A stretch of 64,000 bases of DNA from a virus, in IMG/VR virus record IMGVR_UViG_3300044815_000115, positions 1 to 64,000 of that record. The stretch is one strand, 5' to 3'. Of this stretch, positions 1 to 35,635 are shown in pieces. The stretch's first letter is position 1. Each line of letters begins with the position of its first letter. Both the position numbers and the translations under genes were made by a program. The notes below the pieces were generated by a model. The model saw nothing but the letters and a program-made list of their open reading frames with translations, did no database searches and was not told the DNA's origin.

Positions 1-131
1 CGCGCTTCGGCGTACAGCCACGACCAGGTCTGCGACAGCCGCTCGAGCGGGTTGGTCCGCTCGTCGATGCGCTGCTCATGCTTGGTCCGTCTCCGCCGGG
101 CGGCGGCGCGGGTGCCGGTTTCGCGTGCCAT
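1..131 (-). CDS. hypothetical protein, partial (runs off the window)
   Basis: ATG at 131 with GAGGAGGGAA RBS; MARETGTRAAARRRRTKHEQRIDERTNPLERLSQTWSWLYAEA... Confidence 0.6.
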   Translation of the reverse strand, partial: MARETGTRAAARRRRTKHEQRIDERTNPLERLSQTWSWLYAEA

Positions 132-522: not shown

Positions 523-702
523 TCAGTCCTCGAACTTCGAAAAGCCGGACACGATCAAGTTCGGGGTGCCGTAGTGCTCGCGTAGGTCCCTCATGACGAC
601 CTCGACGTCGTCCATGTCGCGGATCGGCTCTGGACGGCTGATCTCGGTCCCTCCGAACCGGCCGTGCTCCGTCGTCCAGGCGATCAGGTAGTGGTGGGTC
701 AT
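523..702 (-). CDS. hypothetical protein (59 aa)
   Basis: MTHHYLIAWTTEHGRFGGTEISRPEPIRDMDDVE...; GAGGAG RBS; fills the operon gap. Confidence 0.6.
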   Translation of the reverse strand: MTHHYLIAWTTEHGRFGGTEISRPEPIRDMDDVEVVMRDLREHYGTPNLIVSGFSKFED

Positions 703-769
703 GATTCGCTCTCCTCAGAGGTGGTCGGGTGGTAGCCGTTCACGGGCGTCGTGACGGGCAGAGTGGACT

Positions 770-1452
770 CGGTGGAGGCGGTCTTCACTGGTTCATCGCC
801 TTGCCTCCAGAGGGCCCCTCCGAGCGCAGTTGCGCCTGGGCCTCCGTGACCGCCTCCTGAAGACGGGGGGCTCTCGCCCAGCCCACTCCGAGCTCGTTCA
901 CGATGGCCTGCTGCGACCACTCTCGAACGTCGCCAGAGGGCAGGTTCTTCGCCGCGTTGGAGGGGGTCTCCAGCAGGCGCTGAACTGCCTCTTCGTCGGT
1001 GAAGCGGGGCTTGGTGGAGGCCCTGCCGGATGCGGTCTTGGAGGGGCCTCTGGTGCGGGCCTGGCGGCGGTCCTCCAGGTTGATGGTGGAGTCCTCCGCG
1101 TACTTCTGCTTGAGACTTCGGAGACCCTCCGCATACTCGGCGGAGGCGGCCTCGGCACGCTTCTCGGAGTCGACCTGGAGGGTTTCCAGCCGCCGCTCCA
1201 GGTCCGCGATGGAGGCGTGGAGGGTGGCGACCTCGGAGGTGTGGAGGGCCACCGTGGAGGTGAGTTCGGAGGTGAGATGCTCTACCCGATGGAGGTGCGC
1301 ATCCCGTTCGGAGGTGACCTCCGACAGTCGCGCGGCGGAGTCATCAAGCTTCGCCTGGAGGTCCCCCACCGCCTTCTCGGAGGCTGCCAGGAACCGGCCG
1401 GTGGTGGTCAGTTCAGAGGTGGCCCGATGAAGCTTCGAGGTGCGCTCCTCCA
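770..1452. repeat. dense dispersed GGAGG/CCTCC short-repeat field
   Basis: 16 YGGAGG on the + strand (773-1383) plus about 9 CCTCC; none seen in the remaining ~850 bp of the same gene. Confidence 0.75.
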
Positions 1453-2305
1453 AGGCGACGACAAGCTGCCGGACCCGGGCCACCGGGTTGACCCGCATCC
1501 ACCAGCCGGGGCTGTCCACGGACGTCGCCCACCGCTGCTGCAGGGCAGCGTTGTAGCCCGTCCACGCCGCCTTCGGGTCGGTGACGTAGTTGTCGATCGA
1601 CCAGCGGCGAGCCAGGTAGGCGCGCAGCGGGAACGAGCGGATCCGGTCGCCGGAGAATGTGGCACCGGCCGCGTCGACGACGCCTTCCTTGCGCAGCTGG
1701 ACGTGCTGCATGCGGCGGGTGTGCAGGCCCCACAGCCACGGGGACAGCAGGGACAGCAGCCCGAACGCGGATGCTGCGGCGTTGACACCGAGCTTGTTGT
1801 CGGGGCTGAAGTCGGCGAAGTGCGCGTAGTTGATCGACGCCACGGCGGCGGCGATCGCGTAAGAGGCGCGGCGGAGTTGTGCGGCGGTCTTGCCGGCCTT
1901 GTTCATCAGGGCGTCGTGGGCGTGCCAGCCGACGTACACGGAGATGGACTCGATGGCGGCGGCGATGACCGCGGCGAGGGCGAGCTTGCCGGGGGTGGGC
2001 CAGCCGGCGGGGGCGACCTTCTCGTAGAAGAAGGCGACCTGCCCGTAGATGGCGGCGCCGTTGACGAGTAGCAGCGGCACGTACATGAGCCGCTTGGCCA
2101 CGTCGGTTTTGGCCTTGGCGGGTCTGCGGGCGATCAGGTAGGTGGCGACCGCTCCGGCGGTGACGCCGAGGAGCACGAGGCCTACCGAGAGAAGGGTGTT
2201 GTGCCCGCCCGCCCACACGCCGTCCGCCCAGCCGCCATCGACCGGGACCGTGGGGGTTCCGGACACGGCGGGGCCGTCGTCGGGCTGCAGGGGGATCAGG
2301 GGCAT
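785..2305 (-). CDS. SpdB2/DUF2637-like membrane protein with coiled coil and C-terminal HTH (plasmid/AICE spread-protein architecture)
   Basis: About 5 TM helices, long heptad region, C-terminal WSQQAIVNELGVGWARAPRL HTH-like motif. Confidence 0.6.
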   Translation of the reverse strand: MPLIPLQPDDGPAVSGTPTVPVDGGWADGVWAGGHNTLLSVGLVLLGVTAGAVATYLIARRPAKAKTDVAKRLMYVPLLLVNGAAIYGQVAFFYEKVAPAGWPTPGKLALAAVIAAAIESISVYVGWHAHDALMNKAGKTAAQLRRASYAIAAAVASINYAHFADFSPDNKLGVNAAASAFGLLSLLSPWLWGLHTRRMQHVQLRKEGVVDAAGATFSGDRIRSFPLRAYLARRWSIDNYVTDPKAAWTGYNAALQQRWATSVDSPGWWMRVNPVARVRQLVVALEERTSKLHRATSELTTTGRFLAASEKAVGDLQAKLDDSAARLSEVTSERDAHLHRVEHLTSELTSTVALHTSEVATLHASIADLERRLETLQVDSEKRAEAASAEYAEGLRSLKQKYAEDSTINLEDRRQARTRGPSKTASGRASTKPRFTDEEAVQRLLETPSNAAKNLPSGDVREWSQQAIVNELGVGWARAPRLQEAVTEAQAQLRSEGPSGGKAMNQ

Positions 2306-2330
2306 TAGGCAACTCTAACACGGATATCGA

Positions 2331-2348
2331 GATATCTCTAGGGATTTC
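2331..2348. promoter_or_regulatory. candidate operator in divergent promoter (GATATCTC-TA-GGGATTTC)
   Basis: Imperfect inverted repeat resembling the 9569-9586 palindrome. Confidence 0.5.
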
Positions 2349-2365
2349 TCGCCCTCGGCTATAGG

Positions 2366-2656
2366 ATGAGAGTCATGACCATGACCTCCCATGACGCCGA
2401 AATCAGCCCCCAGCTGATAAATCGGCTACGCGCAGACCGGCTACCACCACCGGCCAGACGACGCGAGATCCGCAAAGCGGCCCGGGCCACGCTGCTCGAC
2501 GTGGCAACCGAGTTGGGTGTGACGCAGCTGTCGGTCTCGAACTGGGAACGGGGGCTACACGAGCCGCGCCGCCGCTACATCCAGCCGTACCGCCGGCTGC
2601 TCGAGGTGCTGGCGGAACTCGCCGCAGAAGAGGTCTCTCAGCAGGGCCGGAAATGA
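2366..2656 (+). CDS. XRE-family HTH regulator
   Basis: RREIRKAARATLLDVATELGVTQLSVSNWERGLHEP. Confidence 0.85.
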   Translation: MRVMTMTSHDAEISPQLINRLRADRLPPPARRREIRKAARATLLDVATELGVTQLSVSNWERGLHEPRRRYIQPYRRLLEVLAELAAEEVSQQGRK

Positions 2657-3105
2657 CGACGGCCGAGGTGCACGAACACCCCGGCCGCTCAGCCCGCCCA
2701 CGTAGTGCGAATACGCAGGAGAGAACCTTGACGGTAACTCAGGACGCGGGGTATGTCAGCCCTCCCCCCGACACCGAAGCCACCTACACCGCGGCCGAAC
2801 TGCTCGAGGTGGTCCTCGCCGCGTACGAGCGCGGGCTGAACGACGCGGCGAGCCAAGACGGCCGTGACCACTGGAACCGGCCCGAGCTGATCGCCGGCTT
2901 CCGGGAGCAACGCAAAGCCGCCGAGATTCGGGCCATGCGCGAACGGGCCGCATCCCGCTACCTGGTCCGCGGGCTCACCGACGGCTACGACTACAAAGGT
3001 GGTCCGGTGGACTTCGAGACGGGCATGCCGCTCGGATCCGCCTGCGCGTGGCTACGGCGCCAGCGCGCTCGTCCCGCGTACGAGTTGGCAGGCGGCGACC
3101 AGTGA
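2653..3105 (+). CDS. hypothetical protein
   Basis: ATGA/GTGA overlaps with both neighbours; true start may be ~2728. Confidence 0.6.
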   Translation: MTTAEVHEHPGRSARPRSANTQERTLTVTQDAGYVSPPPDTEATYTAAELLEVVLAAYERGLNDAASQDGRDHWNRPELIAGFREQRKAAEIRAMRERAASRYLVRGLTDGYDYKGGPVDFETGMPLGSACAWLRRQRARPAYELAGGDQ

Positions 3106-4580
3106 CCGACGAAGAGCCGCTCTGGGGTGACGAGCTCACCGACCCCAGCTTCGAACCACCCGACGACCCCTGGGCGGCGCCGGAAACCGTGGCCGCGAGA
3201 GCCCTCGACGCCGGCGAGAAGGCCGTGCCGCTGGCCAACCTGCCCGAAGAGTTCTGGGGTGCCCGCCAACTGTTCAAAGACGTCCGGCAGGCGGCACACG
3301 CCACGGTCAACTCCGCCGACGCGGTCCTCGGCAGCGTGCTCGCGCGCGCGTCAGGAATGGTCTCGCACGAGCTCCGGTTCGACTCCGGTCGCGGCCCGAA
3401 CGGGTCACTGAACCTGTTCGTCGCGATCGTCGCCCCCTCGGGCATCGGCAAGACGACCGCCGTGCAATGCGCCGACGACCTGGTCATGACGCCGCGGTAC
3501 CTGTCCTGCGGGGAGGGTCGCAGCGACATGGACCGGTTCCGCGACGGCGTCGGGCTGGGTACAGGCGAAGGGATCGCCGAGGCGTACATGGGGATGATCG
3601 AACGCCCCACCGGCGCCGTCCAGGCCCGGTCCACGAAGACCGCGAACGCCGGCGACCCGGTGATGAAGGCGGAACGCGGCCAGGTCCGCCACAACGCGTT
3701 CCTCTATCTCGACGAGGGTCAAACCCTTTCGAAGATGATGAAGGAACGGCAGGGCACGACCATCGGCGCGACGATCAGGACCGCCTGGACCGGTCAGGCC
3801 CTCGGTCAGGCGAACGCACAGGAGGCCACGACCCGGTTCGTGGGGCGGAACATGTACTCGCTGGGCATGGTGATCGGATACCAGCCCGCGGTCGCCCAGG
3901 ATCTGCTGTCCGACGGCGGCCCGGGCACACCGCAGCGGTTCCTGTGGCTGTCGGCGCTGGACCCGAACATCCCCGAGGATGGTCCGTTCATGCCGGCGCG
4001 GGTCGTTCTGCCGCTCGAGACCGTCGACGGGCTGGCGTTGTCCGGCGTGGTGAGCTTTCCGGAGGCATACAAAGCCGATCTTCGGCGGGCGCACCGGGCG
4101 AAGGTGATCGCTGAGGTTGCGGTCGACGAGTTGGATTCCCACGAGCCGCTGATGCTGTGCAAGCTTGCCGCCTTGTTCTGTGTGCTCGACGCGCGGATGG
4201 CCGTGTCGGGCGAGGACATCGAGTTGGCGAACCTGCTGTGGCGGGTGTCGTGCGCGACGCGGGACCGGCTGATGGAGTTCGGCCGGCAGGAGGCGCAACG
4301 GCGTAAGGCGGAAAAGTTGGCGACGAGGATCGCCGAGACTGAGGCGGTCAGTCTTGCAACGAGGGGCGTCGACCACACGATCGACCGGGTGGCTCGGCTG
4401 ATTTTCCGGCGGGTGCGGTCACATGAGGGGCCTGCACTGCGGTATCTGCTGCGCAAGAACATCGGCTCGGCCAACAAGCCCTATTTCGATGCCGCCCTTG
4501 CGCATGCGAAGGGTCAGCGGTGGGTGGCGACGGACGAGGACGACCGCGAGGTTCTGCTGGGGTCGGCGACCCCCCTGTGA
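3102..4580 (+). CDS. DUF3987/YfjI-like P-loop replication protein (putative helicase)
   Basis: LNLFVAIVAPSGIGKTT Walker A, FLYLDE Walker B, GTPQRFLW motif. Confidence 0.7.
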   Translation: MTDEEPLWGDELTDPSFEPPDDPWAAPETVAARALDAGEKAVPLANLPEEFWGARQLFKDVRQAAHATVNSADAVLGSVLARASGMVSHELRFDSGRGPNGSLNLFVAIVAPSGIGKTTAVQCADDLVMTPRYLSCGEGRSDMDRFRDGVGLGTGEGIAEAYMGMIERPTGAVQARSTKTANAGDPVMKAERGQVRHNAFLYLDEGQTLSKMMKERQGTTIGATIRTAWTGQALGQANAQEATTRFVGRNMYSLGMVIGYQPAVAQDLLSDGGPGTPQRFLWLSALDPNIPEDGPFMPARVVLPLETVDGLALSGVVSFPEAYKADLRRAHRAKVIAEVAVDELDSHEPLMLCKLAALFCVLDARMAVSGEDIELANLLWRVSCATRDRLMEFGRQEAQRRKAEKLATRIAETEAVSLATRGVDHTIDRVARLIFRRVRSHEGPALRYLLRKNIGSANKPYFDAALAHAKGQRWVATDEDDREVLLGSATPL

Positions 4581-4581
4581 T

Positions 4582-4866
4582 TGGGGGGCGAAGGGGGGCG
4601 ATCGCCCCCCATGGGGCTAACGAACAACACAAAACCGAGATTTTTTCGGGATCTTGCAATTGCCCAAAATCCGGTGCCTGAGCTGCATAGATAGATAAAT
4701 ATCAATATCAAAGAGGGGTGACTACGCGCGAGGGTGTCTGTGGGGTAGTGGGGGGGGGGGGGGCGGGGGGGGGGGCGGGCGGGGGGGGGGGGGGGGGCGG
4801 GGGGGGGGGGGGGGGGGGCGTGGGTGTCTGTGGGGTAGTGGGGGGCGATCGCCCCCCCGCCCCCCA
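4582..4866. other. candidate replication origin after the DUF3987 gene; central poly-G part probably misassembled
   Basis: GGGGGGCGATCGCCCCCC palindromes at ~4594 and ~4840 flank an AT-rich core; GGGTGTCTGTGGGGTAGTGGGGGG is duplicated around a poly-G run. Confidence 0.45.
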
Positions 4867-34252: not shown

Positions 34253-35635
34253 ATGGCGACCGTTGAGGAACGGGGTAACTCCACCAGGGTCAATTGGCGA
34301 CTCGGCGGCACCCGTGACGGTGCCCGGCAGTCTTGCACATTCCAGGGAACGTCCGTGGCGCGCGCAAAATTGGCGAACGCGGCGAAGGCCGTGATCGAGT
34401 CGCGGAACCACAACATGACCCGCGCCGAGTGTTACGCGGCGGTACTCGGGCAGGAGCCGGTCGCCACCGACTCGATCGTGCCGACGGTGAAGATGTGGGT
34501 CGGTCAGTACCTCGAGATGCGGGCTCGGGCCCGTGACGTGCAGCCCGACACCATCGAGCGGTACCGGCAGATCCTTCAGACGCGGGTGGTGCCCCGGCTC
34601 GGGCACCTGCGCCTCGACGAGATCACCGAGGACGACATCAAGGACTGGGTGGCGTGGATGTCCAGCCGTCGTGTGACGAAGGGCAGCCGGAACCGGGTCG
34701 CGACGGATCGTCTCCTTGCGGGGCAGACGGTGCGGCGGGCGCATTCGATCCTGCACACCTGCCTGGGTGCGGCGGTGCCGAGGTGGATCCCCCGGAATCC
34801 GGCGGCGCGGCCGGCGGGGGCACGCAAACATACTGCGGGCCTGCCGAAGGTTGAGGCGTTCGAGGGGATGTTCCTGACGCCTGCCGAGGTGCGCATGGTG
34901 CTGGACCGGTGCGGTGAGGCGATCCGGGACCTGGTGTACACGGATCTGCGCACCGGCATGCGGCTGGGTGAGATCGTCGCGTTGCAAGCCAAGCACGTCG
35001 CGCGGGGGCCCAACGGTGTCGTGGTGAAGGTGCGCCGGGCGTTGAAGGATGACGGGTCGATCGGGCCGCCGAAGTCGGCGAAGTCGATCCGTGACCTGCC
35101 GGTGAGCAACACGGTGGGGCGGATGCTGTTGGGGCGGGTCGCGGGGAGACGGCCGACGGATCTGGTGTTTCCGTCGCCGCGGGGCAAGGTGTGGGATGAG
35201 AATAATCTGCGGGAGCGGCATTGGCTGCCTGCGGTTGCCGCCGCCCAGCGGTGTGTGGAGCATCCGCCTGCGGAGCCGCCGAAGCCGAGGCGGGGGCCGA
35301 GGCGCAAGTTACGCAACGACGAGGTGTCGACGTGTCCATGTGAGACCCGGTTGACGCGGCGGCCGAGGTTGCACGATCTTCGCCACACGCATGCTTCGAT
35401 GCTGATTCATGCCGGGTTCACGCCGAAGAAGGTGCAGGGGCGGATGGGTCACGCCAGCTACCTCGTGACGATGAACATTTACGGTCACCTGTGGGACCTG
35501 GGTGATGAGGGCGAGCTGGACGCGGTGGAGCGGCTGCTGTCGGGCGATGTGTCTAGTCCTCACCGCGGGCGAGCTGGATCAGCCGAACGGCGTGTGCGAC
35601 GCGTTGCCGTTCGGCGTCGCGTTTCTGGTCGATGA
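34253..35635 (+). CDS. int: tyrosine recombinase/integrase
   Basis: TGMRLGEI, PKS, LHDLRHTH, MGH and IYGH catalytic motifs; adjacent to att. Confidence 0.95.
   Translation: MATVEERGNSTRVNWRLGGTRDGARQSCTFQGTSVARAKLANAAKAVIESRNHNMTRAECYAAVLGQEPVATDSIVPTVKMWVGQYLEMRARARDVQPDTIERYRQILQTRVVPRLGHLRLDEITEDDIKDWVAWMSSRRVTKGSRNRVATDRLLAGQTVRRAHSILHTCLGAAVPRWIPRNPAARPAGARKHTAGLPKVEAFEGMFLTPAEVRMVLDRCGEAIRDLVYTDLRTGMRLGEIVALQAKHVARGPNGVVVKVRRALKDDGSIGPPKSAKSIRDLPVSNTVGRMLLGRVAGRRPTDLVFPSPRGKVWDENNLRERHWLPAVAAAQRCVEHPPAEPPKPRRGPRRKLRNDEVSTCPCETRLTRRPRLHDLRHTHASMLIHAGFTPKKVQGRMGHASYLVTMNIYGHLWDLGDEGELDAVERLLSGDVSSPHRGRAGSAERRVRRVAVRRRVSGR

Follow-up and report, generated by a model that had tools for sequence, protein, structure and literature searches.

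A Dense Array of YGGAGG Motifs Within the Coding Sequence of a Phage Membrane Protein: A Candidate Self-Bound DNA–Membrane Tether

Results

A motif array in the 3′ half of a membrane protein gene

The IMG/VR virus record IMGVR_UViG_3300044815_000115 is 103,319 bp long and 94% complete as estimated by CheckV. Its first 64 kb (positions 1 to 64,000) are referred to here as the window, and coordinates are those of the window unless the record is named. Near the left end of the window, a leftward gene coding for a protein of 506 amino acids (aa) carries in its 3′ half an array of the short motif YGGAGG (Table 1). An earlier reading made from the sequence alone (the sequence-only reading) had noticed 16 copies on the plus strand and about nine on the minus strand, with none elsewhere in the gene. 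An exact count returned 16 and 9, and no GGAGG or CCTCC was found in positions 1453–2305, the remaining 853 bp of the gene. The 16 GGAGG pentamers of the plus strand (774, 959, 1016, 1040, 1142, 1177, 1211, 1219, 1235, 1243, 1256, 1268, 1291, 1310, 1357, and 1379) are all preceded by C or T and correspond to CCTCC in the mRNA. Nine CCTCC pentamers are located on the same strand at 804, 817, 841, 853, 1072, 1093, 1126, 1318, and 1447, eight of them followed by A or G. No consensus wider than YGGAGG was found. The window contains a mean of 1.5 motifs per 500 bp and reaches its maximum, 19, in the bin 1000–1500, while at the scale of the whole record the richest 700-bp bin holds 24 motifs and the runner-up five. 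The 103-kb record contains no second cluster of this kind, and the highest motif density in 1.49 Mb of unrelated loci was 14 per 700 nt. As had also been pointed out before, the copies are not tied to one reading phase and continue past the gene: CCTCC occurs in codon phases 1 and 2 (TS, AS, PS; LH, LQ), the opposite orientation is in phase 2 (xE[GADV]), and one copy lies 10 nt beyond the stop codon.

Table 1. Location of the array, the gene that carries it, and other features of the window.
Feature	Position	Strand	Remarks
Two small open reading frames (ORFs)	241–702	−	59 aa; 92 aa, hydrophobic; part of the leftward transcription unit of the array gene, downstream of it
Array of 25 YGGAGG boxes	773–1452		16 on the plus strand, 9 in opposite orientation
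Array gene	785–2305	−	ORF, 506-aa protein; G+C at third codon positions (GC3) 0.89
C-terminal domain, aa 437–495	821–997	−	Three helices; putative helix-turn-helix (HTH)/winged helix, "type I" variant
Linker, aa 414–436	998–1066	−	Disordered, basic, Ser/Thr-rich; model pLDDT <50
Long helix, aa 274–413	1067–1486	−	One uninterrupted 140-residue helix of coiled-coil type; model pLDDT >90
Palindrome GGAGG-N3-CCTCC	1310–1322		Codons SEVTSE; retained at the homologous site in both type I relatives
Multi-pass membrane domain, aa 37–285	1451–2197	−	No motif inside
Divergent control region	2306–2365		Separates the array gene from the Xre-type gene
Xre-type HTH gene	2366–2656	+	HTH_3 match; divergent from the array gene
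DUF3987 primase/helicase-type gene	3048–4580		Same side as the Xre-type gene
Tyrosine integrase gene	34253–35635

Searches of Pfam, PHROGs, and NCBIfam found no family for the 506-aa protein, the Pfam and NCBIfam outputs being limited to weak sub-threshold coiled-coil matches. Approximately 20 full-length homologues share 46–63% identity with it, and a full-length structure model built on 20 homologues predicts four parts: five hydrophobic helices (aa 37–59, 76–97, 104–135, 139–163, and 176–207), a long helix, a disordered basic linker, and a three-helix C-terminal domain. The model agrees with the membrane, coiled-coil, and small helical C-terminal architecture that the sequence-only reading had described. 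The membrane domain is the conserved part of the family (67–90% identity among homologues). The segment of the long helix, for which weak SMC-type coiled-coil matches were obtained, is poorly conserved (15–45% identity), and its DNA is the densest part of the array.

The motif excess goes beyond protein sequence and codon usage

When synonymous codons were shuffled within the array gene, 9.8 CCTCC and 3.8 GGAGG were expected on the coding strand versus 15 and 9 observed (P ~2e-4). As a second control the protein was kept fixed and its codons were resampled from the other 139 genes of the phage. With this background usage the expectation in the window gene dropped to 3.8 CCTCC (15 observed, P<1/3000) and was 4.1 for GGAGG (9 observed). 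Similar values were obtained for two homologous genes, L004 (CCTCC 16 vs 3.5 expected, GGAGG 10 vs 5.7) and L058 (CCTCC 16 vs 3.7, GGAGG 8 vs 3.4). In a test that presupposes no motif, the top canonical 5-mer of the window gene was present 24 times, more than the maximum reached by any 5-mer over 500 synonymous shuffles (21); the membrane-domain half gave only the generic CGCCG. An unbiased k-mer ranking placed CCTCC first.

The bias is visible in the choice of codons for the dipeptides that can accommodate the motif. In the window gene, NCC-TCC encodes 10 of 15 [TAPS]S dipeptides versus 35 of 357 (9.8%) in the other genes of the phage, C-CTC-C encodes 5 of 10 xL[HQRP] versus 14 of 340 (4%), and G-GAG-G encodes 8 of 12 xE[GAVDE] versus 87 of 467 (19%). 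Across the window gene, L004, and L058, motif codons make up 67–82% for [TAPS]S, 50–86% for xL[HQRP], and 47–70% for xE[GAVDE]. The two orientations are enriched at a ratio of about 2:1, as expected from the number of cheap reading frames. These results indicated that the motif excess exceeds what protein sequence and codon usage account for. The earlier suggestion that selection acts on the DNA itself withstood this test, as the enrichment survives both synonymous shuffling and background codon usage. In our view the array is probably an element of one kind or another that is under selection at the DNA level.

Homologues carry arrays that change with the C-terminal domain

The genes compared at the DNA level were of type I (the window gene, L004, and L058) or of type II (L002, L003, L024, L059, and L060); the homologues P0002, P0003, P0004, and P0020 were assessed by the capacity of their amino acid sequences for the motif. 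L004 belongs to a complete 112.6-kb phage with terminal repeats. The two type I homologues share 53–55% identity with the window protein overall and 27–30% in the coiled coil, and they have 16 + 10 (L004) and 16 + 8 (L058) copies in the same half of the gene; each type I gene carries 24–29 copies. When the motif positions of the three type I genes were aligned, 46 of 60 were present in a single gene and 5 in all three. Copy number is thus maintained while positions turn over, which descent alone would not explain at such divergence. The spacing of the palindrome GGAGG-N3-CCTCC is seen five times across the three genes. A scan of viral contigs for this palindrome returned chance matches plus the contig of G002, a relative with terminal repeats and a large serine recombinase, and G002 was also the one match when the type I C-terminal domain was used as query.

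The five type II genes lack GGAGG. Instead, an unbiased search identified in the same half of the gene an array of TCACCG/CGGTGA, with 14 + 4 copies in L024, 16 + 5 in L059, and 9 + 4 in L060 compared with 2.3–3.9 + 0.6–0.8 expected; the excess is significant under own-gene shuffling too. Motif class and C-terminal domain go together: the genes with GGAGG encode one variant of the domain (type I) and those with TCACCG/CGGTGA the other (type II). The sequence-only reading had anticipated that homologues would possess repeat fields of their own and that the enriched k-mer would change with the type of C-terminal domain, and both were found. P0003 and P0004 have a membrane domain 88–90% identical to that of the window protein, yet their C-terminus is of type II; their coiled coil is poor in serine and has nearly zero capacity for GGAGG. 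Since these two proteins pair a window-like membrane domain with a type II C-terminus, the 3′ module consisting of array and domain is exchanged as one unit. In L059, L060, L024, and L002 the CGGTGA copies cluster in an acidic C-terminal tail of variable length, where they are written GGT-GAx (GD/GE) with a 12-nt spacing. The peptide of the type II tail appears to be dictated by the DNA motif.

More distant relatives have only the membrane domain in common and terminate in HTH domains of other types. A clade-specific short word fills the linker-coding tail of many of these genes but not the head, and the membrane-domain halves contain no array. Seven genes with an HTH_23-like helix carry TGAGCC(G), and the variants TGAGTCG, TGCCCGC, TGCGCAG, and TGGGTCG are found where this helix differs. 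The relatives of "GWSYDR" type contain CCGAC/CGACA 22–44 times, in all three frames and on both strands, and the peptides that result are odd ones. At least four domain types have, in this way, a motif of their own. In the metagenome contigs L061 and L069, the linker includes short tandem (ACCG)n runs translated into TDRP-type peptides; such an in-ORF tetranucleotide repeat could be a frameshift-prone (phase-variable) tract.

The C-terminal domain and its relation to known folds

The C-terminal domain constitutes a separate family; it was detected in 58 cluster representatives, where it is located at the C-terminus or nearly so except in the two weakest matches, and a DUF2637 match precedes it in 19 of 54 proteins. 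FtsK-gamma was the top match, although a weak one, when the domain profile was compared with PDB sequences (E 0.07), and it was the highest-probability Foldseek match (0.5, root mean square deviation 2.3 over 54 columns, 28% identity). An hhalign comparison with FtsK-gamma gave E 0.017 and a probability of 2.7%, or E 9.5e-4 and 22% with a deeper profile, the alignment spanning the HTH core. The Pfam FtsK_gamma model (PF09397) had no match to the domain at E up to 10, and a full-length profile compared with PDB was dominated by coiled-coil matches.

The element and the neighborhood of the array gene

PHROGs matches in the record comprise a terminase large subunit (1.6e-33), a portal protein (1.7e-113), a protease/major head protein, and a tape measure protein (1264 aa). 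Because genes for terminase, portal, capsid, tape measure, and integrase are present, the element is a tailed temperate phage. ORFs cross both ends of the record (window 1–131 and record 102045–103316, both on the minus strand) and are out of frame over a simple circular junction; therefore, the record was cut within genes. The phage, a soil actinophage, has relatives in the genomes of Actinoplanes and Micromonospora as well as in metagenomes from soil.

The ATG of the array gene is preceded at 6 nt by TAGAGT and no Shine–Dalgarno (SD) sequence is present, so the mRNA is probably leaderless. The promoter region shared with the divergent gene includes the palindrome GAGATATCTC (2320–2348). Gene neighborhoods are largely unconserved among array genes, and the neighbors that do recur adjoin genes of both motif types. 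The two small ORFs downstream were not found beside homologues, and the flanks of L058 have no neighbor in common. The Xre-type gene adjoins type I (window) and type II (L059 and L060) genes. A 150-aa protein (window 2653–3105, plus strand; G002 64797–65195), 51% identical between the window and G002, is the sole conserved divergent neighbor in two complete phages; it adjoins both L004 and L002, being represented beside the latter, a type II gene, by an N-terminal fragment. Directly after the primase/helicase-type gene, at 4585–4860, GGGTGTCTGTGGGGTAGTGGGG direct repeats stand on either side of an approximately 70-nt G tract, with GGGGGCGATCGCCCCC palindromes at 4593–4610 and 4843–4858 and an AT-rich stretch at 4640–4715. 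This structure is a candidate origin, attachment site, or G-quadruplex element.

Discussion

The reading that we prefer, at a confidence that is about even, is that the array is a cis-acting site bound by the product of the very gene in which it lies, and that this complex tethers the phage DNA to the membrane. In this model, the 3′ half of the gene would be coding sequence and cis-acting DNA element at once, with about 25 YGGAGG boxes in either orientation kept by selection on double-stranded DNA. The boxes would most likely be bound by the protein's own C-terminal three-helix (HTH/winged-helix-like) domain, while the N-terminal multi-pass domain would anchor the protein in the membrane and the 140-residue helix would extend and oligomerize it. 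Because anchored and oligomerized copies would bind the array, many of them could together fasten the phage genome to the cytoplasmic membrane. Protein and sites share one ORF and would therefore be inherited as one module in mosaic phages. The complex would likely be used to position phage DNA in a mycelial host or to spread it there, in the manner of Spd or TraB–clt; alternatively, it may serve membrane-attached replication, in the manner of p16.7 of phage phi29.

What binds the array and what the complex does are both inferred. The sequence-only reading had named a neighboring translocase as a possible binder, a suggestion that lost ground: no FtsK or TraB was found in the element. FtsK_SpoIIIE (PF01580) was not found in the window record, and the match of this model in G002, an 18-bit P-loop match, was below the cut-off. 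The ParA-type AAA_31 (PF13614), the single ParA model searched, was not found in either phage. Since neighborhoods are unconserved, recurrent neighbors stand beside both motif types, and neither an FtsK/TraB motor nor a ParA was detected, the gene's own product would be the simplest candidate reader, a proposal for which we see roughly equal chances either way.

Several observations weigh against binding by the gene's own product. The model of the C-terminal domain has modest confidence (pLDDT 65), its fold matches are weak (hhalign probability 2.7–22%), and a wide structural search by VIA recovered generic winged-helix proteins only, with Z at most 5. A box of 5–6 bp is short for specific recognition by a single domain, and the boxes exhibit neither regular spacing nor helical phasing. 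The DNA-level comparison covered no more than three genes of type I and five of type II, and because motif and domain are physically linked within the same 700 bp, their co-variation is confounded. In 60 Micromonosporaceae genomes, most canonical Pfam DUF2637 genes have a short tail that carries no array; the trait is confined to a subfamily and is not universal in the DUF2637 superfamily.

The array could instead be a cis-acting DNA site read by another protein, of the phage or of the host. The weakly constrained linker-coding region would then be a permissive store of sites, and its link to the domain would reflect the co-inheritance of adjacent DNA. Nucleotide-level selection is demonstrated, whereas the binder is a candidate; motif and domain are physically linked, the assignment of the C-terminal domain is weak, and the window and G002 have the divergent 150-aa neighbor in common. 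Nonetheless, we regard this explanation as unlikely. The neighborhoods are otherwise non-syntenic, and the Xre-type and 150-aa neighbors are found beside both types and therefore no neighbor tracks the motif. In addition, at least four domain types with motifs of their own would require four unlinked co-evolving partners. In place of a tether, sites of a different kind within the gene were also considered, namely a replication origin with in-gene iterons like those of lambda O, a site for packaging, or a roadblock for autoregulation. A primase/helicase-type gene does lie near the array gene in the window, and self-binding would permit autoregulation of the small genes downstream. The primase gene is, however, not beside the homologues, the array (GC 0.676) includes no AT-rich unwinding stretch, and the terminase gene of the record is far off, at 69.9 kb. 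Given this lack of synteny with replication or packaging genes, an origin or packaging site is unlikely, and the group of explanations as a whole seems improbable to us. Chi-like sites, restriction or methylation targets, and Rho-utilization sites were set aside as well, because the array shows none of what they would entail, namely a single orientation, depletion, or an RNA poor in G.

The array could also be a functionless by-product of slippage and duplication (cryptic simplicity) in a fast-evolving low-complexity linker, with local codon bias added. It does occupy the protein segment with the lowest conservation, the copies of "GWSYDR"-type relatives include short tandem (ACCG)n runs, and a few 9–12-nt words recur in the window gene. 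The window gene is, however, devoid of tandem structure, and the motif occurs there in both orientations and several frames; the same top 5-mer dominates three genes whose linkers are approximately 28% identical, mostly at different positions; and the codons of permissive dipeptides are biased 4- to 12-fold to the motif. With nothing comparable in the membrane-domain halves or in the unrelated loci, we find a by-product quite unlikely. A signal at the RNA level had been offered as an alternative by the sequence-only reading. CCUCC, which is the anti-SD core, is present 15–16 times in the mRNA, and the 16 sites in antisense RNA would be strong SD sequences; they might titrate ribosomes or SD sequences or build structure. 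The motif matches the core of the 16S rRNA 3′ end, and UCACCUCC occurs three times in the mRNA of the array gene. Compared with shuffled sequences, folding gave z −3.4 for the mRNA and −5.2 for the antisense strand (5′ half, −2.0), and a sigma-70-like promoter match (TTGAGA-16-CATACT, a consensus match only) lies inside the array at 1110–1137 on the plus strand, antisense to the gene. Against such a signal, a word and its complement occurring together give extra folding energy automatically, the orientation ratio fits coding cost and not the 1:1 required for pairing, and an Rfam search found no match. The arrays of relatives (TCACCG, TGAGCC, and CCGAC), which occupy the same place, are unrelated to SD or anti-SD sequences. 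The last observation in particular weakened the RNA alternative, and we now judge it highly improbable.

Among known systems, the closest to a self-bound tether would be TraB/TraA–clt of Streptomyces conjugative plasmids. TraB and TraA bind repeated 5–9-bp clt motifs through a C-terminal winged HTH, and in pWTY27 the clt extends into traA (PMC3583192, PMC4447253). The likeness lies in a membrane protein with a C-terminal winged helix (putative in our case) and in short element-specific motifs clustered at or in the 3′ end of its own gene; the window has 25 boxes in 680 bp, the sole cluster of the record, and the motifs of the family are clade-specific. Differences are also evident. Neither the protein nor the phage was found to possess an ATPase motor of FtsK type, and the host element is a tailed phage. 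The clt loci consist of 3–9 mostly direct and largely intergenic repeats, whereas 13–44 copies in both orientations make up the arrays described here, and the whole array is within the ORF. SpdB2 is an oligomeric multi-pass membrane DNA-binding spread protein with an N-terminal coiled coil that is reported to bind double-stranded DNA non-specifically; homologues have been reported on some actinophages (PMC4447253). The array-gene protein is likewise a multi-pass membrane protein of an actinomycete mobile element, but its coiled coil follows the membrane domain. The sequence-only reading had proposed an Spd-type likeness. The N-terminal domain is nearest to the Atlas clusters of DUF2637 (feature scores 0.87–0.90) and SpdB_N (PF27080; 0.84), which is a lead only. 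On the other hand, the element is a tailed temperate phage and not a plasmid of Streptomyces type, Pfam DUF2637 (PF10935) gave no match at E up to 10, whether by hmmscan or against the six frames of the window record and G002, and tblastn with the protein, its membrane domain, and the relative P0022 found nothing in collections of cultured phages and 72,556 plasmids. To our knowledge, which includes a literature search, an intragenic motif array has not been reported in Spd genes.

Other systems resemble parts of the arrangement. The winged helix of FtsK-gamma reads the 8-bp KOPS. Like FtsK-gamma–KOPS and SpoIIIE–SRS, the array gene would combine a small winged helix, putative here, with a short G-rich motif; KOPS are dispersed and polar along the chromosome, whereas the boxes of the array are clustered in a single gene. 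The phi29 protein p16.7 (about 130 aa) consists of a single transmembrane helix, a coiled coil, and a C-terminal dimeric DNA-binding domain, and it attaches replicating phage DNA to the membrane without sequence specificity and without a site array. Its order of membrane anchor, coiled coil, and DNA-binding domain is the one predicted here, where the last is putative. Type Ib centromeres (ParG–parH, pB171 ParB–parC) are arrays of 4–6-bp boxes in both orientations that are bound cooperatively, and the lambda initiator O has its sites, four iterons of about 19 bp, inside its own gene. Short boxes in both orientations are thus shared with the former and the location within the gene with the latter. 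The type Ib arrays are, in contrast, regularly spaced and mostly non-coding, and a ParA-type ATPase was not found in either phage with the AAA_31 model.

More tentatively, and with less confidence than in the tether itself, we propose that these genes represent a new class, a one-gene, self-contained DNA–membrane tether of actinomycete phages and integrated elements. The ORF would encode the binder as well as its own multi-copy site (a "centromere"), the linker peptide would for the most part be incidental to the DNA code, and domain and motif would diversify and recombine as a single specificity pair. If the product binds its own gene, the gene would be a compact overlap of protein and DNA codes, in which the requirement for 25 binding sites has molded the sequence of a 200-residue protein segment. 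Clade-specific domain–motif pairs (GGAGG, TCACCG, TGAGCC, and CCGAC) would be natural orthogonal parts for DNA tethering, and in annotation such arrays could flag cis-acting sites concealed in coding sequence. For the phages of mycelial actinomycetes, the system would be a motor-less counterpart of TraB–clt and Spd and would bear on how phage and prophage DNA is positioned, retained, and spread between hyphal compartments.

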